Source: Actinomycetota bacterium
GTDB lineage: Bacteria > Actinomycetota > Actinomycetes > S36-B12
Direction: 5' to 3'
Length of the DNA stretch: 64,000 nucleotides
Assembly (NCBI GenBank): GCA_017856385.1
Contig: JAFMFD010000004.1
Span: 2,828 to 66,827, forward strand
In this document: positions 1 through 16,634 of the stretch, piece after piece
Layout: every line of letters begins with the position of its first letter
Numbering within the stretch: the stretch's first letter is position 1
Made by a program: the position numbers and the translations under genes
Notes under the pieces: generated by a model
The model's input: the letters and a program-made list of their open reading frames with translations, nothing else
Told to the model about the DNA's origin: nothing
Database searches by the model: none

Positions 1-161
1 GACAGCTCGGTGACTCCGATCTCGCGCCGGCCGTAGGAGAACTCCTTGAGCACGCGGGCCGCGTTCCGCACGCTCGACAGCGACGAGTGCTGCCGGCCCT
101 CGCCTCCCTCCCTGACCTCGGGTGGATCCGCTGACGGCTCCTCGCGCGCACCGGGGGTCAT
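1..161 (-). CDS. IclR-family transcriptional regulator, N-terminal part only (gene continues past the left edge)
   Basis: Own minus-strand translation from ATG at 161: MTPGAREEPSADPPEVREGGEGRQHSSLSSVRNAARVLKEFSYGRREIGVTELS. This fits the winged-helix N-terminus pattern of IclR regulators. There is an ATGA start/stop overlap (158-161) with the upstream ORF. It is absent from the ORF track because it is truncated. Confidence 0.55.
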   Translation of the reverse strand, partial: MTPGAREEPSADPPEVREGGEGRQHSSLSSVRNAARVLKEFSYGRREIGVTEL

Positions 162-862
162 CGGGGCTCCCGGGAGACGGCCAGCAGTCGTCGTCGTGAC
201 TGCTCCGGAGGTGTGGTGGACAGGTCCCAGCCGGCGAGCTGGTCGTCGCCCGGTGCGATGGCTCGCGCGAGGAGCAGGGTGGCGGCACCGAGGTCGGACA
301 GCTCGGCGGCGCGCATCTCGGCGACGAGCCGCTCCTGGCGGGGGAGCAGGTGGGTGAGGGCGTCGTAGTCGCGGACGGCTGCCGCATGCGTGTGGGCCAG
401 GCCGGTTCCCGCGTGCTGCGCGTGATGGGCGGTCAGGCCCCCGCCCGGCGGCACCGTCAGGTGGTAGACGATCGTGCTCAGCCCCAGGAGCCCCCGGATC
501 CGCTCTCCGGAGCCGGGTGAGGTGTCGTCCAGCATGCCCAGGGCGGGCAGCACGACCGGGTCGAAGAAGCGCACGACCCACTCCAGGTCCCCCTCGCGCC
601 CGTCGATCACGACCTCGGGGCCGGCAGGTGCGGGCAGGGCGTCGGTCGTCCCGACCACGTGCAGGTTGCGGGCCCCGACAGCGGCGACCGTGAAGCGGCC
701 GGCGCGCAGGAGGGGCAGCCGGGCGCGGTCCCCGGGGGTCAGTCCGACGATGGCGTCGAGGTAGGCGCGGTGGAGCGAGGCGATGTAGGCGGCCATCGCC
801 GCGCGCATCCCGGCCGGGTCACCTGCAGGCCCTCCCCGCTCCGTGGGCACCTCGGGCTCCAT
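158..862 (-). CDS. hypothetical protein, family not recognised; apparently co-transcribed with the IclR gene
   Basis: ORF 158..961 trimmed to the ATG at 862 (MEPEVPTERGG...). Composition is coding-like. Its stop overlaps the IclR start. I recognise no motif. Start is uncertain; MRAAMAAY is an alternative. Confidence 0.45.
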   Translation of the reverse strand: MEPEVPTERGGPAGDPAGMRAAMAAYIASLHRAYLDAIVGLTPGDRARLPLLRAGRFTVAAVGARNLHVVGTTDALPAPAGPEVVIDGREGDLEWVVRFFDPVVLPALGMLDDTSPGSGERIRGLLGLSTIVYHLTVPPGGGLTAHHAQHAGTGLAHTHAAAVRDYDALTHLLPRQERLVAEMRAAELSDLGAATLLLARAIAPGDDQLAGWDLSTTPPEQSRRRLLAVSREPR

Positions 863-884
863 GGGCCCGGACGCTAGCACGAGC

Positions 885-946
885 GTCCCGCATATGGGGA
901 CATTGTGCTTCCATGCGGGACACCCTGTGCCTAGCCTCCCGCACAT
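885..946. promoter_or_regulatory. candidate operator: three copies of TCCCGCA(T/C)AT-like half-sites in the divergent intergenic region
   Basis: tcccgcatat at 886-895 and tcccgcacat at 937-946, both direct. atgcggga at 913-920 is the inverted copy. Together gtcccgcat (885-893) and atgcgggac (913-921) form a 9-nt inverted repeat with a 19-nt spacer. The sites lie between the divergent starts at 862 and 1006. Confidence 0.4.
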
Positions 947-1005
947 CGTGGTCTTGGTCACATGCCACCGCGACAGGACCGCACAGCGAGCAGACCGGAG
1001 GAGCC

Positions 1006-1914
1006 ATGGGAATCCTGCGCTTGGGCCACGTCGACGTCACGGTGACCGATCTGGACCTGGCCACGGCGTACTACACCGAGGTGATCGGGCTGCTCGAGGT
1101 CGAGCGCGACGACGACTCGGTCTACCTCAAGTGCTGGGACGAGCCCAACCACCACTCCCTCCGGCTCATCTACGGCCCGCGGGTCGGCTTCGACCAGATG
1201 TCCTTCAAGGTCGAGCGGGAGTCCGACCTCGACGACTTCGAGAACGCCGTCCAGCGCTACGGGTTCCCCGTCCGCCGCGTCTCCAAGGGCGAGTCGGTGG
1301 GCCAGGGGGAGTCGATCCGGTTCGAGACGCCCTCGGGCCAGCAGATGGAACTGGTCCACGACGTCGAGATGACCGGCCGCGCGACGGCACGCATCAACCC
1401 TGCTCCCTTCGTGGAGGGACTGCGGGGCATCGCACCTCCACGGCTGGACCACGTGCTGGTGACCGCGGAGGAGGTGGGCGACTCGGCGCAGTTCTACCAG
1501 GACGTGTTCGGGTTCCGCCTGACCGAGCAGCTCATCGACGGGGCTGGGCACCAGATGGCGGTCTGGATGGAGACGTCCGGCCGCCCGCACGACCTCGCCA
1601 TCGTGTCGGGTCGCAACGGCGGCCTGCACCACTTCGCGTGGTGGCTCGACGACTGGGATCACGTGCGCAAGTCGGCCGACATCCTCGCCTACAACGGGAT
1701 CCAGATCGACGTCGGTCCGACGCGCCACGGGATCACCCGCGGCAACACCATCTACTTCTTCGACCCACTGGGCACGCGCAACGAGGTGTTCACCGGCGGC
1801 TATAAGCCCGATCCGGACTTCCCGACCATCACCTGGACCGAGGACAACATCGGCCGGGCCGTCTTCTACTACGAGGGTGAAGTGAACCAGCGCTTCATGA
1901 CGGTGCACACATGA
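1006..1914 (+). CDS. type I extradiol dioxygenase (catechol 2,3-dioxygenase-like, VOC superfamily), paralog 1
   Basis: ORF 913..1914 trimmed to ATG 1006, preceded by GGAGGAG at 997-1003. Two-domain VOC layout with LDHVLV, GLHHFAWW and FFDPLGTRNEVF, the His/His/Glu positions typical of Fe(II) extradiol enzymes. Confidence 0.85.
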   Translation: MGILRLGHVDVTVTDLDLATAYYTEVIGLLEVERDDDSVYLKCWDEPNHHSLRLIYGPRVGFDQMSFKVERESDLDDFENAVQRYGFPVRRVSKGESVGQGESIRFETPSGQQMELVHDVEMTGRATARINPAPFVEGLRGIAPPRLDHVLVTAEEVGDSAQFYQDVFGFRLTEQLIDGAGHQMAVWMETSGRPHDLAIVSGRNGGLHHFAWWLDDWDHVRKSADILAYNGIQIDVGPTRHGITRGNTIYFFDPLGTRNEVFTGGYKPDPDFPTITWTEDNIGRAVFYYEGEVNQRFMTVHT

Positions 1915-2822
1915 GCATCCTGAGACTTTCCCATGTCGAGATCCGCGTGCCGGATCTCGAGTTGGCCACCGCGTACTACACCGAGGTGGTCGGCATGTAC
2001 GAGACCGCCCGGGAGCCCGACCGCGTCTTCCTGAAGTGCTGGGACGAGCACCAGCACCACTCGCTCATCCTCACGTTCGCGCCCACCTACGGCCTGAACC
2101 ACATGGGCTGGAAGGTCTCCGAGCGTGCAGACCTCGACCACTACGCCGGTCGCCTCGAGGCCGCGGGCGTCGATGTCGTGCGCTTCGCCGCCGGCGAGAT
2201 AGGACCCGGACACGGCGAGGCCATCCGCTTCACGATGCCGAGCGGCCATGTGATGGAGCTCGTCCACGGCATGGAGCAGGTCGGGAACCTGCTGCCCAAC
2301 ACCAACCCCCCGCCGCGGCCCATCGGCCTCGTGGGATTCGCGCCGCCGCGCCTGGACCACGTGTTCCTCACCTGCGAGGACGTCGCGGGCAACACGTCCT
2401 TCCTCGTCGACGTGCTCGACTTCCACCTGACGGAGCAGATCCTCGGTGACGACGGGTTCCAGGTGGCGACGTGGCTGGAGCACTCGCACCACAGCCACGA
2501 CATCGCCCTGGTCACCGGGCAGGACCGGGGCCTGCACCACTTCGCGTGGTGGGTCGACGACTGGAATGCGATCCGTGAGGTAGCCGACGTTCTCGCGTAC
2601 CACGGTGTGCGGATCGAGACGAACCCGACGCGGCACGGTGCCACGCGTGGCCACTGCATCTACTTCTTCGACCCGGCGGGCAACCGCAACGAGGCGTTCA
2701 CCGGTGGCTACTGGGTCGACCCGGACGAGCCGCCCGTCACGTGGACCGAGGCGGAGATGGGGCGAGCCATCTTCTACTACGACGGCGTCGTGAACCAGCG
2801 ATTCCTGACCGTGCACAGCTGA
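1911..2822 (+). CDS. type I extradiol dioxygenase (catechol 2,3-dioxygenase-like), paralog 2
   Basis: ATGA overlap with paralog 1 at 1911-1914. Motifs LDHVFL, GLHHFAWW and FFDPAGNRNEAF. Collinear with paralog 1 over the full length. Confidence 0.85.
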   Translation: MSILRLSHVEIRVPDLELATAYYTEVVGMYETAREPDRVFLKCWDEHQHHSLILTFAPTYGLNHMGWKVSERADLDHYAGRLEAAGVDVVRFAAGEIGPGHGEAIRFTMPSGHVMELVHGMEQVGNLLPNTNPPPRPIGLVGFAPPRLDHVFLTCEDVAGNTSFLVDVLDFHLTEQILGDDGFQVATWLEHSHHSHDIALVTGQDRGLHHFAWWVDDWNAIREVADVLAYHGVRIETNPTRHGATRGHCIYFFDPAGNRNEAFTGGYWVDPDEPPVTWTEAEMGRAIFYYDGVVNQRFLTVHS

Positions 2823-2828
2823 GAGGCG

Positions 2829-3950
2829 ATGATGACGACATCCGAGCTCCAGCCGCCGGCCGCGCTCCCGCGGACCGAGCGCAACGATGCTCCGGCCTAC
2901 CTGCAGCGCTACCTCGACCGCGAGGGCCGCGGTGGCAAGCCGCACGAGGTGGACGATCGCGGTGGCGAGTCGGATGCGCCGCTCTACCTGCGCCGCTTCC
3001 GCGACCGGCGTACGGGAGCGAACCCGCTCGAGCAGCCCGTGCCCGAGTGGCAGGGCTCGGACCTCGGCGTCACGCAGGCCCGCGCCCGCCAGACGAAGTC
3101 CAAGGAGATCGTGCCGCCCGACACCGCTGCCGCCGGACCCAGGACGGTCACGCAGGTGCACATCATCCGGCATGGCGAGACCCAGGGGTACAGCACCGAG
3201 AGCGGGCTCACCCCGCTCGGCAGCTGGCAGGCCCACCGTCGCGGCTTCGACATCAGCAAGGGCGTGCGTGAGGGCGAGCGCATCCGGATCGTGTGCGCGG
3301 AGACCAACCGCGCCCGGCAGACCGCGGAGCAGATCCGCAAGGGCCTGCTCGACGGCCTGACCATGTGGGGACGCTCGGCGGACGTCTCGGCCGAGATCGA
3401 GGGCATGGAGGAGTTCCGCAACTTCCAGGTCTGGACCCCGGAGGGACTGCGCGACGTCACGGGGGCCTTCCGGCTCTACCAGAAGGAGATGGAGCGGTAC
3501 GAGCGGGTGGCGCACGGTGATCGCCCGCTGTGGCTGGTCGAGATCGACCGGTTCTGGCGGACCCAGCAGGGCGGCGGCGACCCCATCACGTACTGGACGC
3601 AGATACCGATGCTGTGCTTCGAGCCGCCGTCGGCCACCATCCGCCGATTCTGGGCCGGCATCCGTCGTGTGCGCGAGGGGACCCCCGGCGACCGCATCAT
3701 CGTCGCGACGCACTCCGGGCCCATCCGCGTCTTCGCGATGGCCGCCCACGGGTACGACCCTGGCGAGCCCTACAACACCGAGGAGGTCATCGTGAAGCTC
3801 CTCGAGGGTGACACCGGGGCCTTCCTGGCGTACCGGAACCGGGTCTCCGAGGTGCAGGTGCCGGCGCTGGACGAGCTGCCGGACTGGTGGGAGGGGCTGT
3901 CGGGCAGCGCTGTGCCCTCATCCCTGAGGGCGAAGGAGGTCTCGGCATGA
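2829..3950 (+). CDS. histidine phosphatase superfamily protein with an N-terminal extension of about 110 aa
   Basis: IIRHGETQGY (RHG catalytic motif) at about aa 112-121 and VATHSGPIR later in the protein. The N-terminal extension carries an internal repeat, APAYLQRYLDR / APLYLRRFRDR. Confidence 0.75.
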   Translation: MMTTSELQPPAALPRTERNDAPAYLQRYLDREGRGGKPHEVDDRGGESDAPLYLRRFRDRRTGANPLEQPVPEWQGSDLGVTQARARQTKSKEIVPPDTAAAGPRTVTQVHIIRHGETQGYSTESGLTPLGSWQAHRRGFDISKGVREGERIRIVCAETNRARQTAEQIRKGLLDGLTMWGRSADVSAEIEGMEEFRNFQVWTPEGLRDVTGAFRLYQKEMERYERVAHGDRPLWLVEIDRFWRTQQGGGDPITYWTQIPMLCFEPPSATIRRFWAGIRRVREGTPGDRIIVATHSGPIRVFAMAAHGYDPGEPYNTEEVIVKLLEGDTGAFLAYRNRVSEVQVPALDELPDWWEGLSGSAVPSSLRAKEVSA

Positions 3951-5026
3951 GCGGCTACGTGATGTGGTTCGAGGGCTACTGGGAGGGCCTGAAGCCGGAG
4001 GTCGGCGGCAAGGCGGCGAGCCTGGGGGAGATGACCGGCGCCGGCCTGCCGGTGCCACCCGGCTTCGCCCTGACCACGGCGGCGTTCCGGGACTCGCGTG
4101 ATGCGGCCGACCTCGACGCGACGCTCGCGCGACTGCTGCACGGCCTCGACACTGACGACACGGGCATGGTCGCGGACCGCTGCGGGCAGATCCGCGAGCA
4201 GATCACCCGGATGCCGGTCCCTGCGAACGTGGAGCAGTCGCTGCGGGACGCCTACGCGGAACTGTGCCGCCGCTGCGGGGTGTCCGACGTCCCCGTCGCC
4301 GTCCGGTCGTCGGCGACCAGCGAGGACTCCCCGGACGCCTCCTTCGCAGGCGAGCACGACACATACCTGTGGGTGCGCGGTGCAGATGATGTCGTGGACG
4401 CCGTGCGGCGCTGCTGGGCGTCCCTGTTCACCGATCGCGCCACCTGCTACCGCGTCGAGATGGGCTACGAGCACCGCACGGTGGAGATGAGCGTGGTGAT
4501 CCAGAAGATGGTCCGCCCGGTGTCCGCCGGGGTGGCCTTCACGCTCAACCCGTCGGACGGCGACCGTTCGACGATCGCCATCGACTCGGCCTGGGGGTTC
4601 GGCGAGGGTGTCGTCTCCGGTGAAGTCACCCCTGACAACTTCCTCGTCGACAAGGTCCTGTACGAGATCACCCGGCGGCGTGTCTGCGCCAAGGAGGTCG
4701 AGTTCACGCTCGACGGCGGTGATCGCGTCGTCAAGAGGCCACTGGAGGGGGAGCGCGCATCCGCCGCATCCCTTACCGACGACCAGATCAAGGCCATCGC
4801 GCGCCTGGCCCGCACCGCCGAGCGGCACTACGGATGCCCGCAGGACATCGAGTGGGCCGTCGACGCCGACCTCGGACAGGACAGCGCGATCGTGCTGCTC
4901 CAGGCGCGGCCCGAGACGGTGTGGAGCAAGAAGTCGGCAGAAGCCCCGTCTCCCGCAGCCGGAGCAGACATGATGTCCAGCATCGTCTCCACGCTCATGA
5001 ACCCGCTGAACAGTCGCAAGAGCTAG
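3947..5026 (+). CDS. PEP/pyruvate-binding (PPDK N-terminal, ATP-grasp) domain protein; ATP-binding subunit of a split PEP-synthase-like kinase (PpsB-like)
   Basis: ORF 3887..5026 trimmed to ATG 3947 (ATGA overlap with the upstream stop). Motifs GGKAASLGEM, VAVRSSATSEDSPDASFAGEHDTYL, SVVIQKMV and QDIEWAVD are typical of the nucleotide-binding domain of PEP synthase and PPDK. Confidence 0.85.
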   Translation: MSGYVMWFEGYWEGLKPEVGGKAASLGEMTGAGLPVPPGFALTTAAFRDSRDAADLDATLARLLHGLDTDDTGMVADRCGQIREQITRMPVPANVEQSLRDAYAELCRRCGVSDVPVAVRSSATSEDSPDASFAGEHDTYLWVRGADDVVDAVRRCWASLFTDRATCYRVEMGYEHRTVEMSVVIQKMVRPVSAGVAFTLNPSDGDRSTIAIDSAWGFGEGVVSGEVTPDNFLVDKVLYEITRRRVCAKEVEFTLDGGDRVVKRPLEGERASAASLTDDQIKAIARLARTAERHYGCPQDIEWAVDADLGQDSAIVLLQARPETVWSKKSAEAPSPAAGADMMSSIVSTLMNPLNSRKS

Positions 5027-5087
5027 CACAGCACGAGCCCCAGCACGGTACGACCCACCACCAGTCACGACACTCAAGGGAGTTCGC

Positions 5088-6896
5088 ATGGCAGATCGGT
5101 TCCCCAGCCCCTTCGACATCGCGGCACCCGAGGGTGCCGAGGGTTGGCAGCAGCTGTACACCTATTCGTCGCTGTTCTCCGAGGGGCGACGCGCATATGA
5201 GGACTCCATGTTCTGGTTCCAGGACGGCGTCCACTGGCCCACGGCCCTGCGCCCCTGGGACGCGACGCTGTTCGAGTACGCGATCACATCGCTCTCGCAG
5301 TACAACACCCGGCACCTGCAGGTCCCGCCTGCCAACGGCATCGACTTCCGGATCCTGAACGGCTACGCCTACCTCACTCCTGTTCCGGCCCCGGAGGCCG
5401 ACATCGAGGCCCGCGTGGCGAACTTCATGGATCGTGCCGGCTTCTACTTCATGAACTGGAACGACCTGTACGACAAGTGGATGGTGAAGATCCGCGATCT
5501 CGTCAAGGAGCTCGAGACCATCGACTTCGACCCGCTGCCCGAGCTCGAGGACGCTGACGGCATCGTCAAGTCGGGTGCGGGCCTGGGATCCGGCTGGAAG
5601 ATCCAGGCCGACTACCACAAGCTCCTGGACCTCGCGCTCAAGCTGTGGCAGTACCACTTCGAGTTTCTCAACCTCGGCTATGCGGCCTACTTGGACTTCT
5701 TCGGCTTCTGCAAGCAGTCCTGGCCGAACATCCCGGACCTGGCGATCGCCAAGATGGTCGCCGGTGTCGAGGTCGACCTGTTCCGTCCGGACGAGGAGCT
5801 GAAGCGCCTTGCGCGCCTCGCCCTCGACTCGGGAATTGCCGAGGCGTTCGCCACGGGCGATGTGGACGCCACATGCCAGATCCTCAAGGGCAGCGACGCG
5901 GGCAACGCCTGGATCGCCTCGTTCCAGGAGTCCGCGGAGCCGTGGTTCAACTTCTCGACCGGCTCGGGCTTCTACCACTCCGACAAGATCTGGATCGAGA
6001 ACGTCGAGATCCCGTTCGACTTCATCAGCAACTACATCAGCAAGCTGCAGAAGGGCGAGGATCTCGCGCGGCCGATGGAGGCCATCCGGGCGGAGCGCGA
6101 CCGGATCGTCAACGAGTACGCCGAGCTGCTCCCCAGCGATGCGGACCGCGAGGCATTCCAGGGCAAGCTGGGCCTGGCCCGCGTGGTGTTCCCGTACGTC
6201 GAGAACCACAACTTCTACGTCGAGCACTGGAGCCATTCGGTGATCTGGCGGAAGATGCGCCAGCTGGGCGAGCTGTTCGTCAAGGAGGGCTTCTGGACCG
6301 AGGCGAACGACATCTTCTTCCTCAAGCGCACCGAGGTGGAGGACGCCCTGTTCGACTACTTCCACTCGTGGGCGACCCCGGCCCCCGCGGCCGGTCCCTC
6401 CCACTGGCCGCAGGAGATCGAGCGGCGCCGGAGGATCCACTCGGCCCTCGCCGCGTGGAAGCCGACGCCGGCGATGGGCGTGCCGCCGGAGGTCATCACC
6501 GAGCCGTTCACCGTCATGCTGTGGGGCATCACCACCGACAGCGTTAGCGCCTGGCTCGGCGGCGGAGCGGGCGAGGACGGCGAGCTGCGCGGCATGTCGG
6601 CCTCGCCGGGCGTCGTCGAGGGCCTGGCCCGGGTCATCTTCTCCCCGGACCAGATCAGCGAGGTCCAGGAGGGCGAGATCCTGGTCGCCCCCCTCACGGC
6701 ACCGTCGTGGGCGCCCATCTTCGGCAAGATCCAGGCGACCGTCACGGACACCGGCGGCATGATGAGCCACGCCGCCATCGTCTGCCGCGAGTACGGCCTC
6801 CCGGCTGTCACCGGTACCGGGTTTGCCACGTCGACGATCAAGACGGGCGACCGGATCCGCGTCGACGGCACCAACGGCGTGGTCACGCTGGTCTGA
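5088..6896 (+). CDS. PEP-utilising enzyme mobile (swivel His) domain protein with a large unassigned N-terminal domain (PpsA-like subunit)
   Basis: C-terminal SPGVVEGLARVI...EGEILVAPLTAPSWAPIF...TDTGGMMSHAAIVCREYGLPAVTG is the phosphohistidine swivel domain. The first roughly 480 aa match no family I recognise. AAGGGAG lies upstream of the ATG. Confidence 0.85.
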   Translation: MADRFPSPFDIAAPEGAEGWQQLYTYSSLFSEGRRAYEDSMFWFQDGVHWPTALRPWDATLFEYAITSLSQYNTRHLQVPPANGIDFRILNGYAYLTPVPAPEADIEARVANFMDRAGFYFMNWNDLYDKWMVKIRDLVKELETIDFDPLPELEDADGIVKSGAGLGSGWKIQADYHKLLDLALKLWQYHFEFLNLGYAAYLDFFGFCKQSWPNIPDLAIAKMVAGVEVDLFRPDEELKRLARLALDSGIAEAFATGDVDATCQILKGSDAGNAWIASFQESAEPWFNFSTGSGFYHSDKIWIENVEIPFDFISNYISKLQKGEDLARPMEAIRAERDRIVNEYAELLPSDADREAFQGKLGLARVVFPYVENHNFYVEHWSHSVIWRKMRQLGELFVKEGFWTEANDIFFLKRTEVEDALFDYFHSWATPAPAAGPSHWPQEIERRRRIHSALAAWKPTPAMGVPPEVITEPFTVMLWGITTDSVSAWLGGGAGEDGELRGMSASPGVVEGLARVIFSPDQISEVQEGEILVAPLTAPSWAPIFGKIQATVTDTGGMMSHAAIVCREYGLPAVTGTGFATSTIKTGDRIRVDGTNGVVTLV

Positions 6897-6916
6897 CCAC
6901 CGAGCACTGCACCATG

Positions 6917-6959
6917 GGTTCCGTCGGGCGGGAGGCACCAGGGCCCGCCCGACGGAACC
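6917..6959 (+). terminator. perfect 16-bp-stem hairpin (possible terminator, attenuator or processing site) between the kinase genes and the Rieske oxygenase
   Basis: ggttccgtcgggcggg (6917-6932) pairs with cccgcccgacggaacc (6944-6959), leaving an 11-nt loop. There is no T-tract. It sits 21 nt after the stop at 6896. Confidence 0.5.
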
Positions 6960-7032
6960 GCGTAGGGATCCAACAGCCTGCACGGCACTCACCACCGATC
7001 GATGCACCACCGCACCACGAGAGGACACCACG

Positions 7033-8292
7033 ATGCTGACCGTCGAACAGAACGAGGAGCTCACCCGCGTCGGACCGGGAACGCCCATGGGCGAGCTGCT
7101 GCGGCGCTACTGGTACCCCATCGCCTTCGAGCAGGACTTCGACACCGTCCCGACCAAGACGGTGCGTCTGCTGGGGGAGAACTGGACGCTGTTCAAGACG
7201 CCCAAGGGCGGTCGGTACGGCATCGCGGCGGAGGCGTGCCCGCACCGCAATGCCTCCCTTACCTACGGCGTCGTTCACGAGGACGGCATCCGCTGCGGGT
7301 ACCACGGGTGGAAGTGGGACTTCGACGGCAACTGCGTCGAGCAGCCTGCCGAGGCGGACAACGAGAACTTCCGCACGCGCGTGAAGCAGAAGGTCGGCAA
7401 GGCCGAGGTGATGGGCGGCATGGTCTGGGTCTACGTCGGGCCGAGTCCCGCCCCGGAGCTGCCGCGCTTCGACGTCTTCGTCATGGACGGCGTCAAGGAC
7501 GTCGGCCACGCGACCCTGCCCTGCAACTGGCTCCAGATCATGGAGAACTCCGTGGATCCGCACCACGTCGAGTGGCTGCACGGCTACTACTTCGAGTTCC
7601 TCGGGCAGACGGAGGGGTTCGACGCACCCAAGGCCTTCCAGAAGAAGCACCTGCGCACCGGCTTCGAGGAGATGGAGTGGGGGATCCTCAAGAGGCGTGT
7701 GCTCGAGGGCGGCTCGGAGGAGAACGACGACTGGAAGGTCGGTCACCCGCTGGTGTTCCCCTTCTACATGCGCGTGGGCGGAGCGGGGATCGACCAGATG
7801 CAGATCCGGGTGCCCATCGACGACACCACCACGTGGAAGCTCTTCTACTCCAACCATGCACCCGAGGCGGGTGTCTGGGAGCCGCAGGACCGTCCGGTCG
7901 TCTACGAGTACCGGTGGCGCGATGAGCAGGGCCGCTTCATCACCGACTACATCGAGGGCCAGGACATCATGGCCTGGGTCTCGCAGGGCCCGATCACCGA
8001 TCGCACGCAGGAGCATCTCGGTCGCTCCGACGCGGGCGTGGCGATGCTGCGGAAGATGTTCAAGGAGAACATGAGGAAGGTCGCAGCCGGCGAGGATCCC
8101 CTGGGCACGGTCCGTGAGAAGCACGACATCATCCCGCTGCCCTGCGAGCGCGACAAGTTCGGTGCCGAGCGGGAGTTCGCCGAGGCCTTCATCACGATGG
8201 GCTCCATGCGGTACAGCCCCAACAAGCAGGCCCTGCTGGACCTCCACGCCGACGCCTGGGCACGCCGCGAGGGCGCCAAGGCGAAGGCGTGA
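7033..8292 (+). CDS. Rieske [2Fe-2S] non-heme iron oxygenase, alpha subunit only (phthalate-dioxygenase-like family)
   Basis: ORF 6823..8292 trimmed to ATG 7033 (GAGAGGA upstream). The N-terminus MLTVEQNEELTRVGPGTPMGELLRRYWYPI is typical of the family. Rieske motif CPHRNASL...CGYHGW. Mononuclear iron motif NSVDPHHVEWLH. No beta subunit gene is present. Confidence 0.85.
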   Translation: MLTVEQNEELTRVGPGTPMGELLRRYWYPIAFEQDFDTVPTKTVRLLGENWTLFKTPKGGRYGIAAEACPHRNASLTYGVVHEDGIRCGYHGWKWDFDGNCVEQPAEADNENFRTRVKQKVGKAEVMGGMVWVYVGPSPAPELPRFDVFVMDGVKDVGHATLPCNWLQIMENSVDPHHVEWLHGYYFEFLGQTEGFDAPKAFQKKHLRTGFEEMEWGILKRRVLEGGSEENDDWKVGHPLVFPFYMRVGGAGIDQMQIRVPIDDTTTWKLFYSNHAPEAGVWEPQDRPVVYEYRWRDEQGRFITDYIEGQDIMAWVSQGPITDRTQEHLGRSDAGVAMLRKMFKENMRKVAAGEDPLGTVREKHDIIPLPCERDKFGAEREFAEAFITMGSMRYSPNKQALLDLHADAWARREGAKAKA

Positions 8293-8546
8293 GCGTGATG
8301 CTCCCGCCTGACCCGCACCGGCTCCCGCCGCCCAGCGCGTGGTTCGCCAGGGATGCCGAGCGTCACCTGCTCGACCGTCCGCGGTTCTGTCCCATGTGCG
8401 GTGAGGGCCTCGACACCGACGGCGGCATCACAACGGAGTACTGGGCTGGCGACGCCCGGCACTTCATGACCTGGTGCGGGGAGTGCAGCTGGTTCGGCGA
8501 GGTCGTGCGCTTCGACATGGTCACGATCACCGAGGCGGAGCACTGA
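8289..8546 (+). CDS. small four-Cys (zinc-ribbon or rubredoxin-like) protein, 85 aa
   Basis: GTG start with a GTGA overlap on the Rieske stop (8289-8292). CPMCG and CGEC motifs lie 25 residues apart. Third codon positions are mostly G/C, as in neighbouring genes. I recognise no family. Confidence 0.5.
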   Translation: MSVMLPPDPHRLPPPSAWFARDAERHLLDRPRFCPMCGEGLDTDGGITTEYWAGDARHFMTWCGECSWFGEVVRFDMVTITEAEH

Positions 8547-9211
8547 CCCTGGGAGCGGGCGAGGCGAGGGCCCTGGTCCTCGATTTCGGAGGGCCCGTGC
8601 TCCTCACCCCGTTCGAGCTCCGCCATGTGGGCGAGCGCAACCTGGGGCTGGCCACTGGCAAGTTCGCCTGGACCGGTCCCTTCGATCCCGAGGCCGACGC
8701 CGACTGGCAGGCCTTCCAGTCCGGGGGCATGAACGAGCGCGAGTACTGGGCGCGGCGTGCCGAGGAGTTCAGCGCGCTGACCGGACAGCCCGCCACGATG
8801 CCGGCACTCTTCGCACCGATGTACGCCGGGACGGAAGACGAGCTCGTGCGGCCCGCCGCGCGTCGGCTCATCGCCGACGCCCGAGCCGCCGGCATCCCTG
8901 TCGGGGTGCTGACCAATGACCTGACCAGCTTCCACGATCGGGAGTGGCTCGAGCGCATGACGATCCTGCGGGAGTTCGACGTGATCGTGGACGGCCGGAC
9001 CGAGGGTGTCTACAAGCCCGACCCGGCGGCCTACCGGCTCATCGTCGAGCGGATGGGCATCGATCCGACGACGACCGTCTTCGTCGACGACCAGCCGGTC
9101 AACCTGCGCGGATCCGAGGCGGTCGGGCTGGTGCCCGTGCACCTGGATCCCACGGACCCCGGGCCAGGGTTTAGGTTGGCCCGGTCGCTGTTGGGCCTTT
9201 CACAGGAGTAG
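8474..9211 (+). CDS. HAD-superfamily hydrolase
   Basis: Motifs LVLDFGGPVL (motif I), GVLTND, YKPDPAAY and VFVDDQ. The start is unresolved. GTG 8474 would overlap the small ORF by 73 nt. In-frame CTG 8543/8549 or GTG 8576 are alternatives. Confidence 0.7.
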   Translation: MRGVQLVRRGRALRHGHDHRGGALTLGAGEARALVLDFGGPVLLTPFELRHVGERNLGLATGKFAWTGPFDPEADADWQAFQSGGMNEREYWARRAEEFSALTGQPATMPALFAPMYAGTEDELVRPAARRLIADARAAGIPVGVLTNDLTSFHDREWLERMTILREFDVIVDGRTEGVYKPDPAAYRLIVERMGIDPTTTVFVDDQPVNLRGSEAVGLVPVHLDPTDPGPGFRLARSLLGLSQE

Positions 9212-9213
9212 CC

Positions 9214-10557
9214 ATGCGCGTTGCCGTCGTCGGTTCGGGTCCCTCGGGCGTGTACGCGGCCGATGCCCTCGTGTCGCAGGACGAGATCCCCGTCGAGGTC
9301 GACATCATCGACCGGCTGCCGGTCCCGTTCGGGCTGGTCCGCTACGGCGTCGCCCCGGACCACCTCAGCATCCGCTCGGTCCGCGACACCCTGAACAAGG
9401 TGCTCGCCAAGCCCGGGGTGCGCTTCCTCGGCAATGTCGTCGTGGGCCAGGACGTCTCGACGGCGGAACTGCTCGCCCACTACGACGCCGTGGTGCTCAC
9501 CTACGGCGCCTCGCGCGACCGGCGCCTGGGCATCCCCGGTGAGGACCTCGACGGGAGCGTCGCGGCCACGGACTTCGTCGCGTGGTACTGCGGCCATCCC
9601 GACGCTGACCGTGAGCTCTTCGAGCGGCTGCTCCCCACGGCCACGTCCGCAGTGGTCGTGGGTGTCGGCAATGTCGCCGTGGACGTCACCCGCGTGCTGG
9701 CCAAGACGGTCGGCGAGCTCGACCACACAGACATGCCCCAGCACGTGCTGGACACCCTGGCGGCCTCGTCGATCACGGACGTGCACCTGCTCGGCAGGCG
9801 GGGTCCGGCCCAGGCGACCTTCACGACCAAGGAGCTCAAGGAGCTCGGCGAGCTGATCGACGCCGACGTGATCGTCCACCCCGACGAGATCGAACTGGAC
9901 GAGCCCAGCGCCGCACTCGCTGCCGAGGATCGCGCGGTGGGCAGGAACGTCGACGTGATCCGCGGATGGGCGGACCGACCGAATACGGGACGGGGCCGGC
10001 GCATCCATGTGCGGTTCCTGAGCCGACCGGTCGAACTGCTCGGCGATGACCGGGTTCGCAGCGTCGTCGTCGAGCGCACGCGACTGACACCGGATGGCGG
10101 CGTGGAGGGCACGGGCCAGATGGAGGAGATCGCGGCGGACCTGGTCGTCCGGTCGGTGGGATACCGCGGCACGCCGCTGGAGGGCCTGCCGTTCGACGAG
10201 CGCCGCAACGTGATCCCCCACGTCGACGGTCGGGTCGTCGACGGGGACTCCCCGGTGCGCGGCATGTACGTGGCTGGCTGGATCAAGCGCGGCCCGACCG
10301 GGATCATCGGAACCAACAAGAAGGACGCGGTCGGCACGGTCGAGTCGCTCCTGGCCGACGCGCGGGCCGGGGTGCTGCCGGCCCCCGCATCGCCCGAGCC
10401 CATCGAGGATCTGCTGGCATCACGCGGCGTGGACGTCGTCACGACCTCGGGGTGGGACGCCATCGATGCTGCCGAGCAGGCACTGGGCCAGCAGTCCGGA
10501 CGCGAGCGGACGACGATCCACGAGCGTGACCGCATGCTGGAGATCGCGCAAGGCTGA
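9214..10557 (+). CDS. fprA: FprA-type (adrenodoxin-reductase-like) NADPH:ferredoxin oxidoreductase
   Basis: MRVAVVGSGPSGVYAAD (FAD fold) and a second dinucleotide motif, VVVGVGNVAVDV. Length is 447 aa. The start lies 2 nt after the HAD stop. Confidence 0.8.
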   Translation: MRVAVVGSGPSGVYAADALVSQDEIPVEVDIIDRLPVPFGLVRYGVAPDHLSIRSVRDTLNKVLAKPGVRFLGNVVVGQDVSTAELLAHYDAVVLTYGASRDRRLGIPGEDLDGSVAATDFVAWYCGHPDADRELFERLLPTATSAVVVGVGNVAVDVTRVLAKTVGELDHTDMPQHVLDTLAASSITDVHLLGRRGPAQATFTTKELKELGELIDADVIVHPDEIELDEPSAALAAEDRAVGRNVDVIRGWADRPNTGRGRRIHVRFLSRPVELLGDDRVRSVVVERTRLTPDGGVEGTGQMEEIAADLVVRSVGYRGTPLEGLPFDERRNVIPHVDGRVVDGDSPVRGMYVAGWIKRGPTGIIGTNKKDAVGTVESLLADARAGVLPAPASPEPIEDLLASRGVDVVTTSGWDAIDAAEQALGQQSGRERTTIHERDRMLEIAQG

Positions 10558-10565
10558 CCCGGCGG

Positions 10566-11519
10566 CTAGTGCCAGTGCGCGGCGGCGGCGGGTGTTCCGG
10601 TCTCCCAGCGATGCACCGGCGTCGGCTCCGCTCCGCAGGACTCGGGCCGCCTCTGCTGACCGGTCACCGGTCGCACGGGCACCCGCCACGCGCGGCCGTC
10701 CGCATGCCGGACCTCCAGCTCTGACTCCACGGTCGGCACCGCCCACCCTGCGTCGACGGGCACGGCGCGGCCGTTGACGACGGCGAGCACGTCGAGGACG
10801 TCGGCACGGTCCTCGACCAGCGCCTGACGGACGGCGATCTCGGCGGCCTGCATCGGTGCGGGCAGTGCGGTCCGGCCACGCAACCGGTCGACGATCACGC
10901 GATCGGAGTCGAGCAGCGCGGCCGCCTCATCGACCGTCACGCGACCATGCACCATGCCGCTCGGCAGGCTCAGGGTCACCGGGGCGAAGCGGTGGCCGCC
11001 GAGGTGGCTGCACTCCCAGATCCGGGCGGACTGCTCGGGTGTGGCGAGGGCGGCCAGCGTGTCCAGCAGGCCCCGTCCGAGCCGGGCGCAGCAGGCGTCC
11101 CGTCGACCATGCGTGCAGACGAGCAGGACCGGCTCCCGGGTGCCCTGCTCGAGCGCGGGCAGCCGACCGGCGGCAAGGTCCGCCGGGTCGACACGTGCCA
11201 GGTCGCCGAGGTCGGCCAGGTCCGGCACCACCGCGCGTCGTGTGTAGGCCCCGCCCGGGGCGGTGCGCGCCACCAGCACGACGGTGCCGTGGGCGGCCTC
11301 GCGGCGCCCCGGCCGGCGCATGAGCACGACCTGCACGCCTGCGGCCTTGAACGCGAGCAGCAGTGCGCGGGTCGCATCGGGCAGGACGCTTTCCGCGATT
11401 GCATCGCGTCCCCATGGCCCGGGATGCTCCACCGCAACCCAGGTGAGGGCGTGCGGCGCGGTCCCGGCCAGCGGTTCGCCGATCTCCGCGGAGAGCAGTG
11501 AGCAGGGCTCGGTCACCAT
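10566..11519 (-). CDS. sucrase/ferredoxin-like (thioredoxin-like [2Fe-2S]) family protein
   Basis: ORF 10566..11648 trimmed to ATG 11519 (MVTEPCSLL). Motifs [17 protein letters not shown] and [13 protein letters not shown]. Its start overlaps the parC stop by 7 nt. Confidence 0.65.
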
Positions 11520-13957
11520 GTCCCCGCCACGGCATCGATAGGTGCGGTGCCGCCCGTTCCGGCACTGTCCCGACGCGGGTCGGGGTCGGGCAGCGCGACG
11601 GGGACGCCGGAGGCCGTCGCCGCACGTGCGGGCCCCGATCCGGCCCATGCAGTGATGATGCGGTCCTCACCGGACCGGAACCGGTGGCACCGGACCCCCG
11701 CGGTGCCCCGGCCCTTGCGGGGATACTCCAGCAGGGGCGTGACCTTGACGCTGCCCGCCTCGGTCCCGGGCAGGGCGGCGGAGGAGCCGGAGATGGTCAC
11801 GACCTGCGCGCGGTCGTCGGCCGGCACGGCAGCGAATGCCACGGCCACTGCGCCGGGGGACAGTCGGATCCCGGCCATGCCGGCGGCCGAGCGGCCCTGG
11901 GGGCGCACCGAGGCCGCGGGCATGCGCAGGAGCTGCGCATCGGACGTGATGAAGACCAGGTCGGCGGTCTCGGCAAGACCCTCGGGCAGGCGCGCGACTC
12001 CCACGACCTCGTCGCCGTCGTCCAGCCGGATGACCTCCCAGGCCGACTTGCTCTGCAGCGTCTCGGGCACGACCCGCTTGACGGTCCCCTGCGCTGTGCC
12101 GAGGGCGAGGGCACCCGCCTCGTCGAGCGTCGTGAGGCACAGCGGGCGCTCGCCCGAGGGCAGGTCGACGAACGCCCCCAGCGGCGCGCCGCCCGACAGG
12201 CTGGGTGTGCCGGCGACCGCAGGCAGGCCGGGCAGGTCGAGAACGGCGAGCCGGTGGATGCGTCCGGCGGACGTCACCAGGCCGATCTCGCCCTTGGTGG
12301 TGGCTGGCACCACGCTGACGACGACATCGTGCGAGGACCGCGAGTCCATCGTGGGCAGGGCGCTGCCGCTCGGCTCCGGCATCCGGGCGAGCAGGCCCGT
12401 GCTCGACATCAATACCAGGCAGGGCCCGTCGTCGACCTCGAGCGGCACTGCGGCGCTCACCGGGGCCGATCCCTCCATCAGCAGGGTGCGCCGCGGCGTG
12501 GCATGCGCCTGGGCGGCCTCACCGATCTCCCGCGACACCTGGGCGCGCAGTTCGGCCGGGTCGCCCAGGATGCGGGTCAGCTCGTCGATGGTCCTGCGCA
12601 GCTCGTCCTGCTCCGCTTCCAGCTCGATCCGTGAGAACTTCGTCAACCGCCGCAGCGGCATGTCGAGGATGTAGTTGGCCTGCTCCAGTGAGAGGTCGAA
12701 CACCGTCATGAGGCGCTCGCGAGCCTTGGCCGCATCGTCGGACTCCCGGATGAGCTGGATGACCTCGTCGATGTCGATGATCGCGACCAAGAGTCCCTCG
12801 ACGAGGTGCAGCCGCTCGCGGGCGCGGGTGCGTCGGTAGTCGCTGCGCCGGCGCACCACGTCGAGCCGGTGGTCCAGCCAGACCTGCAGAAGGGCGCGCA
12901 GCCCGAGCGTCTGGGGCTGACCGTCGACCAGGGCGACGGCGTTGATCGTGAAGGTGTCCTCCATCGGCGTGAGCCGGTACAGCTGCTCGAGGATCGCCTC
13001 GGCGTGGAAGCCGTTCTTGACCTCGATGACCAGGCGGAGGCCCGAGTCGCCATCCGTCAGGTCGATGACATCGGAGATGCCCTGGAGTCGTTTGGACTGG
13101 ACGGCGTCCTTGATCCGGTCGATCACCTTCTCCGGACCTATGCCGTACGGCAACTCTGTGACGACGATGCCGCGGCGACGCGCACTGGTCTGCTCGATGC
13201 GGGTCCGGGCGCGCACGCGGAACGTGCCGCGTCCGGACGCATAGGCGTCGCGGACACCGTCCAGTCCCACGATGACCCCGCCGCCGGGCAGGTCGGGGCC
13301 GGGGAGGAGGGTCATGAGGTCGGCGAGGGTGGCCTCCGGGTGCTCGAGCAGGTGCCGCGCCGCATTGAGGACCTCGCCTAGGTTGTGCGGTGCGAGTGAC
13401 GTGGCCATGCCCACCGCGATGCCAGCACCGCCGTTGACCAGCAGCTGGGGAATCGCCGCGGGCAGGACCTCGGGCTCGCGCTCCCGACCGTCGTAGTTGG
13501 GCACGAAGTCGACGACGTCCTCGTCGAGGCCTGCGGTCATGTCGAGTGCCGGCGGAGCGAGCCGCGCCTCGGTATAGCGCATCGCGGCAGGGCCGTCGTC
13601 AAGCGACCCGAAGTTGCCGTGGCCGTCAATCATCGGCAGGCGAAGGCTGAACGGCTGCGCCATCCGCACCAGTGCGTCGTAGATGGCGGAGTCGCCATGG
13701 GGGTGGAGCCGGCCCATGACCTCGCCGACCACGCGTGCGCTCTTGACGTGGCCGCGGTCCGGACGCAGGCCCATCTGAGCCATCTGGAACAGGATGCGAC
13801 GCTGGACAGGCTTCAGGCCGTCGCGGGCGTCGGGCAGGGCCCGTGAGTAGATGACCGAGTAGGCGTACTCCAGGAAGGATCCGCGCATCTCCGCGGCGAC
13901 GTCGATGTCGACGATCCGCCCGGGGCCCTCGGGCGGGGCGGGAGTGCGGCGAGGCAT
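11513..13957 (-). CDS. parC: DNA topoisomerase IV subunit A
   Basis: The 1327-aa ORF is trimmed to ATG 13957 ([20 protein letters not shown]...). Motifs [49 protein letters not shown] and AMRYTEARL (active-site Tyr region). The trimmed protein is 814 aa. Confidence 0.85.
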
Positions 13958-14086
13958 GCGGGCCCTTCTCGGTGTCTTGCTCGTGCGAACCAGGTGTGGA
14001 GTCGATTCTCGTGCCTGGCGCGGGTCAGGCCGGGATCGACACGTCGACACCCGTCGCCTGCCCGGCCGTCGGGGGGCAGTGGAAGA

Positions 14087-14680
14087 ATGCCACGCATGAG
14101 TGATCCGGCCCTCGCGACCCGCCTGCGCAGTGACATCCAGAGGTCGGGCTACTACCCGGACCTCGTCGCCGATGCGCTGGACACCGCCCTCGCCGGGGAG
14201 CCCCTGGTGTCGTACGTCGTTCACCACGAGGCCACCTTCGATCGCGACGAGCTGCGCCGTCACATCACGGTGCTGGCCCTGACGCCGACGCGGCTCATCG
14301 TCGAGCACACCGACGAGCACCCGGCGGACGAGGCCCACGCAGTCGCCTCCGCCACCGCCTCGACCGAGGCCGTCCGCATCGAGCGCGTGGACTCCGTCGT
14401 GGTATCGCGCGTCGTGAGCGACCCCGCGCGCCATGCCCCGGGCGGCTCGGCCGCGGAGGTGGTCCTCACCATCGGCTGGGGGGCGGTCAGCCGCCTGGAC
14501 CTCGAGCCGGCGAGCTGCGGCGACCCCTCCTGCGATGCCGACCACGGGTACACCGGGACCTCGAGCAACGACGACCTGTCGGTCCGGGTGTCCGAGGCGG
14601 CCGACGGTGCTGACGTCGTCGCCCAGGTGCTCGCCTTCGCCGCCGCCCTGTCGCTGGCGACGGCAGAGCGAGTGCGCTGA
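14087..14680 (+). CDS. conserved actinobacterial protein (recalled as DUF5998 family)
   Basis: ORF 13994..14680 trimmed to [27 protein letters not shown] (ATG 14087 or 14096). The family assignment is from memory only. Confidence 0.55.
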
Positions 14681-14683
14681 CCT

Positions 14684-15778: not shown

Positions 15779-15785
15779 GGCGGCG

Positions 15786-16526: not shown

Positions 16527-16634
16527 CTCACGGGGGCTGAAGGCGTCCAGAACTGCTCCTGCGGTCGGGGGCGGGGACTTCCCGCAAGGGCGAACCTACC
16601 GGTTTCCCGGCGGTCGTGGGGCACAGGGCGCGCG

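Follow-up and report, generated by a model that had tools for sequence, protein, structure and literature searches.

A conserved actinobacterial gene cluster combining a phenolic dikinase, a Rieske oxygenase and catechol 2,3-dioxygenases may channel small phenols into meta-cleavage by way of aryl phosphates

Only recently, through the Cre and the Hpe/Acv systems, has it been recognised that the aerobic catabolism of aromatics can begin with a phosphorylation, and those who work on the kinases describe the purpose of this step as an open question. In the Cre pathway, by which Corynebacterium glutamicum degrades 4-cresol, the P450 CreJ acts on 4-methylphenyl phosphate and CreD dephosphorylates afterwards (PMC12167813); particular to this system are its P450 with a 2Fe-2S ferredoxin and an FAD reductase, its HD-domain phosphatase, and alcohol and aldehyde dehydrogenases that lead to 4-hydroxybenzoate. 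In the Hpe pathway of Rhodococcus rhodochrous GD02, HpeCBA accepts only the phosphorylated ketone, from which the HAD enzyme HpeD then takes the phosphate (PMC12167813, PMC9618137); this pathway and the Acv pathway of Sphingobium SYK-6 have as their own features a biotin-dependent carboxylase whose target is the acetyl side chain and an alpha-to-beta order of the kinase genes. The hydroxylation of 3-hydroxypyridine also requires a dikinase pair (bioRxiv 10.1101/2020.01.08.898148). In the aniline and naphthylamine dioxygenase systems the substrate is activated at the expense of ATP, a hydrolase can undo the activation, and a Rieske dioxygenase gives the catechol. Operons of the dmp and xyl type convert free phenol to catechol with a hydroxylase that is either a di-iron or a flavin enzyme. 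Here we describe a gene cluster, located in a 64,000-nt stretch of DNA from an Actinomycetota bacterium (contig JAFMFD010000004.1; hereafter the window, meaning the whole of that stretch), in which genes for a probable dikinase of this kind stand together with those for a Rieske oxygenase, two phosphatases and two ring-cleavage dioxygenases.

The cluster comprises nine genes on the plus strand, labelled g1-g9 (1006-10557), and a divergent gene, g0, in high-GC actinobacterial DNA (about 65-75% GC). Domains were assigned through Pfam, NCBIfam and Protein Data Bank (PDB) searches, and structures were modelled with AlphaFold2 and compared with the PDB using Foldseek; what we show is which genes are present, the families they belong to, their catalytic motifs, their conserved synteny and their linkage to a lower pathway. 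Our preferred reading is that phenol or a cresol (possibly guaiacol) would be converted to an aryl phosphate, oxygenated by the Rieske enzyme and relieved of its phosphate to give catechol for meta-cleavage, and that the nine genes would supply the upper half of a complete route by which small monophenols undergo catechol meta-cleavage, with phenol and cresols as the likeliest substrates. To each of these statements we assign a probability of about one half. A preliminary description of the locus had placed nine plus-strand reading frames with their overlaps and gaps, and all were found where it put them; every one of its domain calls was likewise upheld by the searches. The frames of g1 and g2 share an ATGA overlap (1911-1914), as do those of g3 and g4 (3947-3950), and g6 and g7 share a GTGA overlap (8289-8292), with ATG 8298 as an alternative g7 start; gaps of 6, 61, 136 and 2 nt separate g2 from g3, g4 from g5, g5 from g6 and g8 from g9, respectively.

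That the arrangement of g1-g8 lies far beyond chance is apparent from its conservation. A scan with g5, restricted to one genome per species, gave 80 related loci at 66-95% identity, of which 63 had enough flanking sequence for counts; counts of g0 and of the IclR regulator described below refer to 61 related loci, and those of lower-pathway genes and of absent reductases to 40 fully flanked loci. The genes g1, g2, g5, g6 and g7 are present in all 63 loci, g3 and g4 in 62, and g8 in 61, with g1-g8 all colinear on one strand in 56/63; g0 occurs in 59 of 61 loci and the IclR regulator in all 61. Carriers include metagenome-assembled genomes (MAGs) labelled Nanopelagicales as well as Nocardioides, Micromonospora, Actinokineospora, Blastococcus, Nostocoides, Longivirga, Pseudonocardiales and Acidimicrobiia, and colinear g1-g8 were found in Nanopelagicales-type MAGs, Nocardioides, Micromonospora, Blastococcus, Nostocoides, Longivirga and Acidimicrobiia. 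The gene-neighbourhood check that the preliminary description had proposed thus finds the kinase pair, the phosphatase, the Rieske oxygenase and the tandem dioxygenases co-occurring across the 63 loci, and its view of the nine genes as a single system holds as a conserved functional unit for g1-g8. The kinase-Rieske-phosphatase module is the only candidate feeder in the examined clusters, none of the following being conserved with it: phenol hydroxylases, dihydrodiol dehydrogenases, dehydrogenases for alcohols or aldehydes, carboxylases and transporters. Homologues in a plasmid collection were confined to Cre-, Pps-, Acv- and xanthine-dehydrogenase-linked ones at no more than 54% identity, none of them with a g6-like gene.

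Some related loci carry additional genes. In one sub-lineage, which includes Longivirga aurantiaca, an extra FAA-family gene resembling 2-oxopent-4-enoate hydratase or 4-oxalocrotonate decarboxylase stands between g7 and g8 (loci L003, L025, L028-L032, L038, L040 and L049, around 13450-14220), and in Nocardioides aquiterrae (L042, 1-2109) FAD and 2Fe-2S/CoxG subunits of the CO-dehydrogenase/xanthine-dehydrogenase type lie just past the gene for the Rieske-hydrolase fusion described below. Genes inserted into some Nocardioides-type loci were considered as hints to the substrate and dismissed, the inserts being unrelated.

The assignment of g4 (3947-5026) and g5 (5088-6896) to the two-component phenolic dikinase subfamily of PpsAB, CreHI and HpeHI is well supported, because their identities to known subunits fall in the range of about 45% that HpeH, CreH and PpsA show to one another and because the catalytic motif is intact. 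The ATP-grasp (beta) subunit g4, of 359 aa, matches Pfam PPDK_N (E = 3.5e-112), and among PDB entries it is matched best by 9GOJ (E = 1.9e-83), the HpeI protein of Rhodococcus rhodochrous. The alpha subunit g5, of 602 aa, which would bind the substrate and carry the swivel-His, belongs to the PRK08296 family (850 bits) and has a PEP-utilizers swivel domain at residues 527-597; its homologues bear the generic database name "PEP-utilizing enzyme". The split architecture of the subfamily is present, with an ATP-grasp subunit of ~40 kDa and a second subunit of ~66-70 kDa that has an N-terminal substrate-binding part and a C-terminal swivel, and so is the similarity of about 45% over the full length, beyond the swivel domain. 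For dikinases a catalytic-His motif GGxxS/C-H-AAIV within about 50 residues of the C terminus has been described (PMC12167813); g5 carries it as GGMMSHAAIV in its C-terminal motif GGMMSHAAIVCREYG, with Ser before the His as in PpsA and CreH, and the catalytic-His stretch ...TDTGGMMSHAAIVCREYGLP... aligns with CreH-type, PpsA and Acv-type references.

The reference clusters, taken from the plasmid search, were the Cre-type cluster of R. ruber Y14, the Pps cluster of Azoarcus KH32C, an Acv/Hpe-type cluster of Rhizobium and a pair from Thermomicrobium. Over at least 598 residues g5 is 54% identical to the CreH-type alpha subunit, 47% to PpsA and 43% to the Acv/Hpe-type subunit, with 46% full-length identity to the Thermomicrobium protein; the corresponding values for g4 are 50% (CreI-type), 48% (PpsB), 41% (Acv/Hpe-type) and 42% (Thermomicrobium). 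The earlier identification of a split kinase of the phenylphosphate-synthase type is upheld. On the Thermomicrobium roseum megaplasmid (L088), the homologous dikinase pair lies beside an enzyme of the xanthine-dehydrogenase family, an arrangement that recalls the 3-hydroxypyridine system.

The operon opens with g1 (1006-1914) and g2 (1911-2822), paralogous catechol 2,3-dioxygenases (C23Os) of the type I extradiol class that share 54% identity. Both exceed the cut-off of the catechol 2,3-dioxygenase equivalog TIGR03211 (369.4 bits for g1 and 366.0 bits for g2, against 320.2), and both show the two-domain VOC fold and match XylE (1MPY; E = 2e-73 and 5e-65, respectively), with a further PDB match of g2 to 5ZNH (E = 3e-76). 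The motifs LDH, HD[LI]A, GLHHF, TRHG, IYFFDP and RNE occur in both proteins and align with solved C23Os; by analogy with XylE, we take them to supply the Fe(II) ligands (His, His, Glu) and the catalytic residues (His, His, Tyr).

The product of g6 (7033-8292) is an alpha-only Rieske non-haem-iron oxygenase of the phthalate family. It matches Pfam Rieske and LigXa_C, carries the Rieske motif CPH...CGYH and the iron motif E-x3-D-x2-H-x4-H (ENSVDPHHVEWLH), and has no beta-subunit gene anywhere in the cluster. Its nearest solved relatives are the phthalate and isophthalate dioxygenases PDO_KF1 (7FJL, E = 2.8e-46), RO_CH34 (7FHR) and 9INA, with which it shares the alpha-only architecture and the Rieske and mononuclear-iron ligands. 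These solved relatives use basic residues to bind aromatic carboxylates; phthalate dioxygenase (PDO) binds the carboxylates of its substrate through Arg207 and Arg244 (PMC8649396). Unlike in those enzymes, these two residues are not conserved in g6, whose alignment to PDO places Arg207 in a deletion and replaces Arg244 with Val while keeping the equivalent of the pocket residue Arg231 (RR in ...LKRRV...), and neither a cis-dihydrodiol dehydrogenase nor a decarboxylase gene stands beside g6. We rejected phthalate 4,5-dioxygenase proper as an identity for g6 on account of the two lost arginines and the missing partner dehydrogenase; g6 is a phthalate-family enzyme whose substrate is a different one, though probably anionic as well. 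The absence of a cis-dihydrodiol dehydrogenase also favours mono-oxygenation, O-dealkylation, or dioxygenation followed by spontaneous elimination as the reaction of g6.

Candidate electron carriers for g6 accompany the cluster in varying form. The last gene of the operon, g9 (9214-10557), encodes an NADPH-ferredoxin reductase of the FprA/adrenodoxin-reductase type that matches M. tuberculosis FprA (1LQT) with E = 1.1e-107 over residues 3-445, and it is a member of the cluster only in some lineages: behind g8, FprA is found in 22/63 loci and a reductase with FNR and Fer2 domains, of the phthalate dioxygenase reductase (PDR) type, in 24, while some loci have neither. In Nocardioides-type relatives the PDR-type enzyme sits directly behind the HAD gene in place of FprA, a further likeness to the phthalate dioxygenases. 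A small Rieske ferredoxin is encoded as a standalone protein of about 105-125 aa in most loci and is fused to an alpha/beta hydrolase in several loci of Nocardioides, Micromonospora and Nostocoides (L042, L044, L059, L060, L062-L065, L068 and L069, around 3800-4200), where the hydrolase partner is likely a meta-cleavage-product hydrolase. The preliminary description had listed a canonical Rieske reductase or ferredoxin as absent, a claim that does not survive the conserved small Rieske ferredoxin and the PDR-type reductase of the Nocardioides-type relatives. In two MAG loci (L054 and L057, around 3800-4100) the Rieske ferredoxin is fused instead to a HAD-like domain (WDMGGI..PTPFE), a fusion that links the phosphatase with the oxygenase system.

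Two of the remaining genes encode predicted phosphatases. A divergent enzyme of the histidine phosphatase superfamily with an N-terminal extension of ~100 aa is encoded by g3 (2829-3950), whose core matches Pfam His_Phos_1 (E = 6e-12) and has R114 and H115 (of the RHG motif) and H295 invariant. By sequence it has no match in the PDB; its AlphaFold2 core resembles histidine acid phosphatases, PhoE, PSP and CobC (fold search E about 2e-7), so that the RHG motif, the second catalytic His and the alpha/beta core of the superfamily are all present. Homologues carry the generic database name "broad specificity phosphatase PhoE". The N-terminal 100 residues, ahead of the phosphatase core, are predicted with low confidence to form short helices and match nothing in Pfam, and they contain DAPAYLQRYLDR and DAPLYLRRFRDRR, two conserved copies of the motif [A/T]P-x-YL-x-R-[Y/F]; this segment may serve in docking. 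Invariant residues within it (2829-3140) are P14, R18, D20, P22, Y24, L25, Y28 and R31, followed by P51-R58 and R60.

The second, g8 (8474-9211, start codon uncertain), is a HAD-superfamily hydrolase of subfamily IA that matches Pfam Hydrolase and HAD_2 together with TIGR02247 and TIGR01509. It has a DxG variant of HAD motif I within DFGGPVLLTPFE, a motif nearly identical in almost all relatives examined, and it weakly matches the glucose-1-phosphatase YihX family, in which the DxG variant also occurs. The stretch that separates the stop codon of g7 (8546) from the Asp codon for the HAD nucleophile (8582) lacks ATG, GTG and TTG alike, and the nearest in-frame starts of g8 are GTG 8474 and GTG 8483, both inside g7 and giving overlaps of 64-73 nt. 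Such a junction points to a frameshift, to re-initiation that is coupled to g7 or to a non-canonical start. In most relatives an ATG or GTG stands 6-8 codons ahead of the Asp, and several close ones (among them L009, L015, L021 and L033) have a CTG at that position or no start; the public gene call for g8, of 204 aa from 8597, would remove the catalytic Asp. Between g6 and g8, in all 63 loci, lies g7 (8289-8546), which encodes a protein of 82-85 aa with four cysteines (CPMC...CGEC). It is recognisable neither as a ferredoxin nor as a rubredoxin, and its only matches are sub-threshold ones to zinc ribbons; it is probably a zinc ribbon.

The destination of the ring-cleavage product becomes apparent from sequence beyond the window. 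Three metagenome contigs, 99.85-99.89% identical to the window, encode exactly the same g5 protein, and one of them (L082, 99.85% identical) reaches 4.9 kb further left. On its minus strand, reading away from g1, follow g0, a 287-aa IclR-family protein, an FAA-family hydratase/decarboxylase, an acylating acetaldehyde dehydrogenase of the DmpF type, a 4-hydroxy-2-oxovalerate aldolase of the DmpG type, a second FAA-family enzyme, a 65-aa 4-oxalocrotonate tautomerase and a small Rieske protein. The lower part of the catechol meta-cleavage pathway (tautomerase, 4-oxalocrotonate decarboxylase, hydratase, DmpG and DmpF) is therefore linked to the dioxygenases outside the window, and the earlier statement that lower meta-cleavage genes are lacking was an artefact of the window edge. 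Among the fully flanked loci, 29/40 have such genes linked to the cluster. They lie upstream and divergent in the lineage of the window and downstream of g8 in the Nocardioides and Micromonospora types, where an aldehyde dehydrogenase of the 2-hydroxymuconic-semialdehyde type and an alpha/beta hydrolase are added, so that the meta pathway of these relatives holds both the dehydrogenase/tautomerase and the hydrolase branch.

The preliminary description had also named an IclR regulator as the gene directly divergent from g1; that position is in fact held by g0 (158-862, minus strand), the first gene of the leftward operon. The IclR gene begins at 161 and leaves the window, which contains only its first 53 codons (1-161, minus strand); their translation (...VRNAARVLKEFSYGRREIGVTEL) is the same as the N-terminal part of the 287-aa HTH_IclR/IclR_C protein on L081 and L082. 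A longer reading of the neighbouring frame (158-961) was ruled out as IclR, having no IclR domain. The conserved 234-aa protein g0 matches nothing in Pfam or NCBIfam even at E = 10, its 462 homologues are all unnamed or "hypothetical", and its AlphaFold2 model, although of high predicted local distance difference test score (89), found no match in the PDB with Foldseek (best E = 0.24, template modelling score 0.13). Its invariant residues include the cluster H145, H146, H149, H156 and H158, within a His-rich stretch (HHAxHxGTGLxHxH) resembling a metal site. We note that g0 was found only alongside this cluster.

In the divergent promoter region between g0 and g1 lies an inverted repeat, GTCCCGCATATGGGGAC-N11-ATGCGGGAC (885-921), with a stem-loop detected at 885-901. 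The form GTCCCGCAT-N19-ATGCGGGAC, with an inner ATGGGGAC, recurs in the g0-g1 intergenic region of about 40 related loci, and the repeat is probably the operator through which the IclR protein would bind and govern both operons. Apart from this stem, promoter, terminator and Rfam scans of 1-12000 returned nothing. To the right of g9 (10566-16530 and beyond) follow genes for Suc_Fer-like, topoisomerase IV/gyrase A-like, DUF5998, phosphodiesterase/PglZ-like and DUF3071 proteins and an MFS transporter, the first converging on g9 with 8 nt between the stop codons. The catabolic cluster accordingly sits inside a housekeeping region of the chromosome, and synteny of g9 with the gene that follows it (g10) was seen only in close relatives.

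Set beside the described systems, the cluster resembles each of them in part. With CreHI-CreJEF-CreD it shares an aerobic, actinobacterial setting, a split dikinase in beta-to-alpha order and an IclR regulator (PMC12167813), and it would also share an oxygenase with its own redox partners that acts on an aryl phosphate ahead of a phosphohydrolase. In contrast to Cre, it has a Rieske oxygenase, a histidine phosphatase, a HAD enzyme, two C23O genes and a meta-cleavage pathway. The Cre-type plasmid cluster of R. ruber encodes an HD phosphohydrolase, IclR, a P450, CreI, CreH, a short-chain dehydrogenase/reductase, a ferredoxin, a reductase, an HD protein and an aldehyde dehydrogenase, and its CreJ, CreD, CreE, CreF and CreG gave no hit in the window or in L082 (a CreC-type query was not included). 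With Hpe/Acv the common ground is a two-component dikinase and a HAD-type phosphatase, with HpeI as the best solved match of g4. The Rhizobium cluster of that type combines dikinase, biotin carboxylase and HAD, and neither the window nor L082 gave a biotin carboxylase hit; the HAD of g8 is of the IA, TIGR02247-like kind and not NagD-like, and does not match the Acv-type HAD at E ≤ 1e-3.

The anaerobic phenol system PpsABC with Ppc, of Thauera and Azoarcus, has a dikinase of the same family with the Ser ahead of the catalytic His (PMC12167813). Unlike that system, encoded in Azoarcus KH32C as ppsABC-ppcBDAG-ubiD-ubiX, the present cluster stands in an oxygen-dependent context and has no PpsC (CBS), PpcABDG or UbiD/UbiX: tblastn with the Azoarcus KH32C PpsC, PpcABDG, UbiD and UbiX found nothing at E ≤ 1e-3 in the 64-kb window or in L082, which bears out the earlier observation that no UbiD/UbiX-type carboxylase is present. 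The systems AtdA1-A5 and NpaA1-A5, for aniline and 1-naphthylamine, are alike in design, in that ATP is spent to put an anionic group on a heteroatom, a hydrolase can reverse this, and a Rieske dioxygenase accepts the activated compound only and gives catechol directly for ring cleavage; they do so by gamma-glutamylation with a glutamine-synthetase-like enzyme and an alpha/beta oxygenase, proteins unrelated to those of this cluster. With the dmp and xyl operons, finally, the cluster shares a type I.2-like C23O, the tautomerase, decarboxylase, hydratase, aldolase and acylating acetaldehyde dehydrogenase, to which relatives add 2-hydroxymuconic-semialdehyde dehydrogenase and hydrolase, and a small ferredoxin linked to the C23O genes, although this is Rieske-type here and plant-type in dmp/xyl (XylT/DmpQ). 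The position of the phenol hydroxylase, in contrast, is held here by the kinase, the Rieske oxygenase and the phosphatases.

From these comparisons we infer the substrate, the order of kinase before oxygenase, the chemistry of g6 and what g0, g3, g7 and g8 may do, as follows. The dikinase g4/g5 would phosphorylate the phenolic hydroxyl, converting ATP to AMP and Pi through a phospho-His on g5, and in doing so would trap a freely diffusing phenol and add an anionic handle; the lack of a conserved transporter in the cluster fits phosphorylation as a trap for phenols that enter passively. The Rieske enzyme g6, whose relatives all act on anionic aromatics, would then oxygenate the aryl phosphate ortho to the phosphoester, drawing electrons from NAD(P)H via FprA (g9) or, in other lineages, via a PDR-type reductase, possibly with the small Rieske ferredoxin included. 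Phosphate might be lost spontaneously after ipso,ortho-dioxygenation, or g3 and/or g8 might hydrolyse 2-hydroxyphenyl phosphate after mono-oxygenation or O-demethylation; one of the two phosphatases could instead be a safety valve that returns surplus aryl phosphate to phenol. The resulting catechol or methylcatechol would be cleaved by g1/g2 and the product processed by the divergent operon. In this scheme the kinase-Rieske-phosphatase module would fill the place of the phenol hydroxylase in dmp-type operons, and the transient aryl phosphate in an aerobic oxygenase pathway that the preliminary description had suggested is, in our judgement, the most economical reading of the genes.

Several observations weigh against this scheme. 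We know of no Rieske oxygenase that acts on an aryl phosphate, and for this type of cluster the scheme draws on sequence comparison and analogy. If g6 itself eliminates phosphate, two strictly conserved phosphatases are hard to explain, and the need for two is puzzling otherwise too; the conserved g0 and g7, moreover, are left without a part in the scheme. In 11/40 fully flanked loci no lower-pathway genes occur within 10 kb, and no dedicated reductase is nearby in 9/40. Kinases of the CreH type are the nearest to the alpha subunit g5, and their pathway oxidises a side chain and not the ring. The expense of two ATP equivalents for each phenol hydroxylated also calls for a rationale, and trapping at trace concentrations has been suggested for HpeHI (PMC12167813).

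The similarity of g5 to CreH (54%), the shared beta-then-alpha order of the kinase genes and the IclR regulator common to both are what would be seen if the dikinase acted on a 4-alkylphenol and g6, in the manner of TsaM or CreJ, oxidised the alkyl group of the aryl phosphate before the phosphatases released a 4-hydroxybenzyl product; the phthalate family does contain mono-oxygenases, reportedly TsaM among them, that act on the methyl group of para-substituted anionic toluenes (PMC10579966). The neighbouring catechol pathway would then have to serve another purpose or a later intermediate, whereas the operon begins with two C23O genes and is constantly accompanied by the lower catechol pathway, and a catechol 2,3-dioxygenase would not be supplied by 4-hydroxybenzoate, the product to be expected. 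As the cluster has in addition no conserved CreG/CreC-type alcohol or aldehyde dehydrogenase and no homologue of CreJ, CreD, CreE or CreF, we regard oxidation of a side chain as improbable. We also think it unlikely that the kinase serves solely to capture or detoxify phenols, with the phosphatases releasing them on demand and g6 hydroxylating the free phenol. Scavenging by phosphorylation has been proposed for HpeHI (PMC12167813) and two conserved phosphatases would suit a release function, but the result would be a futile, ATP-consuming cycle without chemical gain, the phthalate-family relatives of g6 bind anionic substrates, and in the characterised kinase-initiated pathways the next enzyme always works on the phosphorylated compound only (PMC9618137).

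The activated substrate might also be something other than a phenol, namely an aromatic amine (aniline to phenylphosphoamidate) or a hydroxylated N-heterocycle that is phosphorylated by the dikinase and dioxygenated to catechol. Homologous synthases are reported to phosphorylate aniline in Desulfatiglans anilini (PMC7500099), and both the dikinase requirement of 3-hydroxypyridine hydroxylation and the activation that precedes the Rieske step of aniline dioxygenase are in keeping with the idea. However, g5 is nearer to CreH and PpsA than to anything amine-linked here, no genes that handle ammonia or nitrogen are conserved in the cluster, and the ring-cleavage enzymes are of the catechol type and not of the (amino)hydroquinone or dihydroxypyridine type, all of which makes such a substrate quite unlikely. 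Least credible is an accidental neighbourhood of unrelated units, in which a kinase would have come to lie beside the two dioxygenases and beside FprA or phosphatases of a housekeeping kind. FprA is a housekeeping enzyme in mycobacteria, g9 is limited to its 22 loci, and the genes downstream belong to the core chromosome, but for g0-g8 chance adjacency is effectively refuted by synteny, given colinearity of g1-g8 across several actinobacterial orders, overlapping or near-abutting frames and a conserved operator.

The preliminary description knew of no characterised pathway with this combination of genes. The idea itself does have precedents: Cre (4-cresol), Hpe/Acv (acetovanillone) and the 3-hydroxypyridine dikinase already exemplify kinase-initiated aerobic catabolism of phenols or hydroxylated heteroaromatics (PMC12167813, PMC9618137, bioRxiv 10.1101/2020.01.08.898148). 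Phosphorylation of a phenol as the first step is thus known, and it is the enzyme set and the destination in catechol meta-cleavage that appear to be new. The full-text literature, with most subscription journals outside its coverage, yielded only the Cre, Hpe, Acv, Pps and 3-hydroxypyridine work and no characterised cluster of kinase, Rieske oxygenase and C23O, and the combination of dikinase, phthalate-family Rieske oxygenase, histidine phosphatase, HAD enzyme and tandem C23Os is apparently uncharacterised. Going further, we offer as a tentative proposal, with the odds somewhat against it, that g6 is the first of a class of Rieske oxygenases with an aryl phosphate as substrate, and that g6 and the dikinase together make up an ATP-driven "phenol hydroxylase" which takes the place of the flavin and di-iron enzymes, is widespread in freshwater and soil Actinomycetota, has high affinity for trace phenolics, and needs accessory proteins not known before, namely g0, g7 and the capped histidine phosphatase.

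The cluster is present in at least 60 species-level genomes from several actinobacterial orders, abundant freshwater lineages among them, and culturable carriers exist in strains of Nocardioides, Micromonospora, Blastococcus and Longivirga. If the preferred reading is true, the chemistry that follows the kinase would differ from that of the described systems, with a Rieske oxygenase probably acting on the aryl phosphate and leading straight into catechol meta-cleavage, and Rieske oxygenases would gain a new class of substrate. It would explain how phenol is funnelled into a meta pathway where the cluster holds no classical phenol hydroxylase, would offer a tractable system for the idea that phosphorylation provides both a trap and an anionic handle, and would give the conserved proteins g0 and g7 a functional context.

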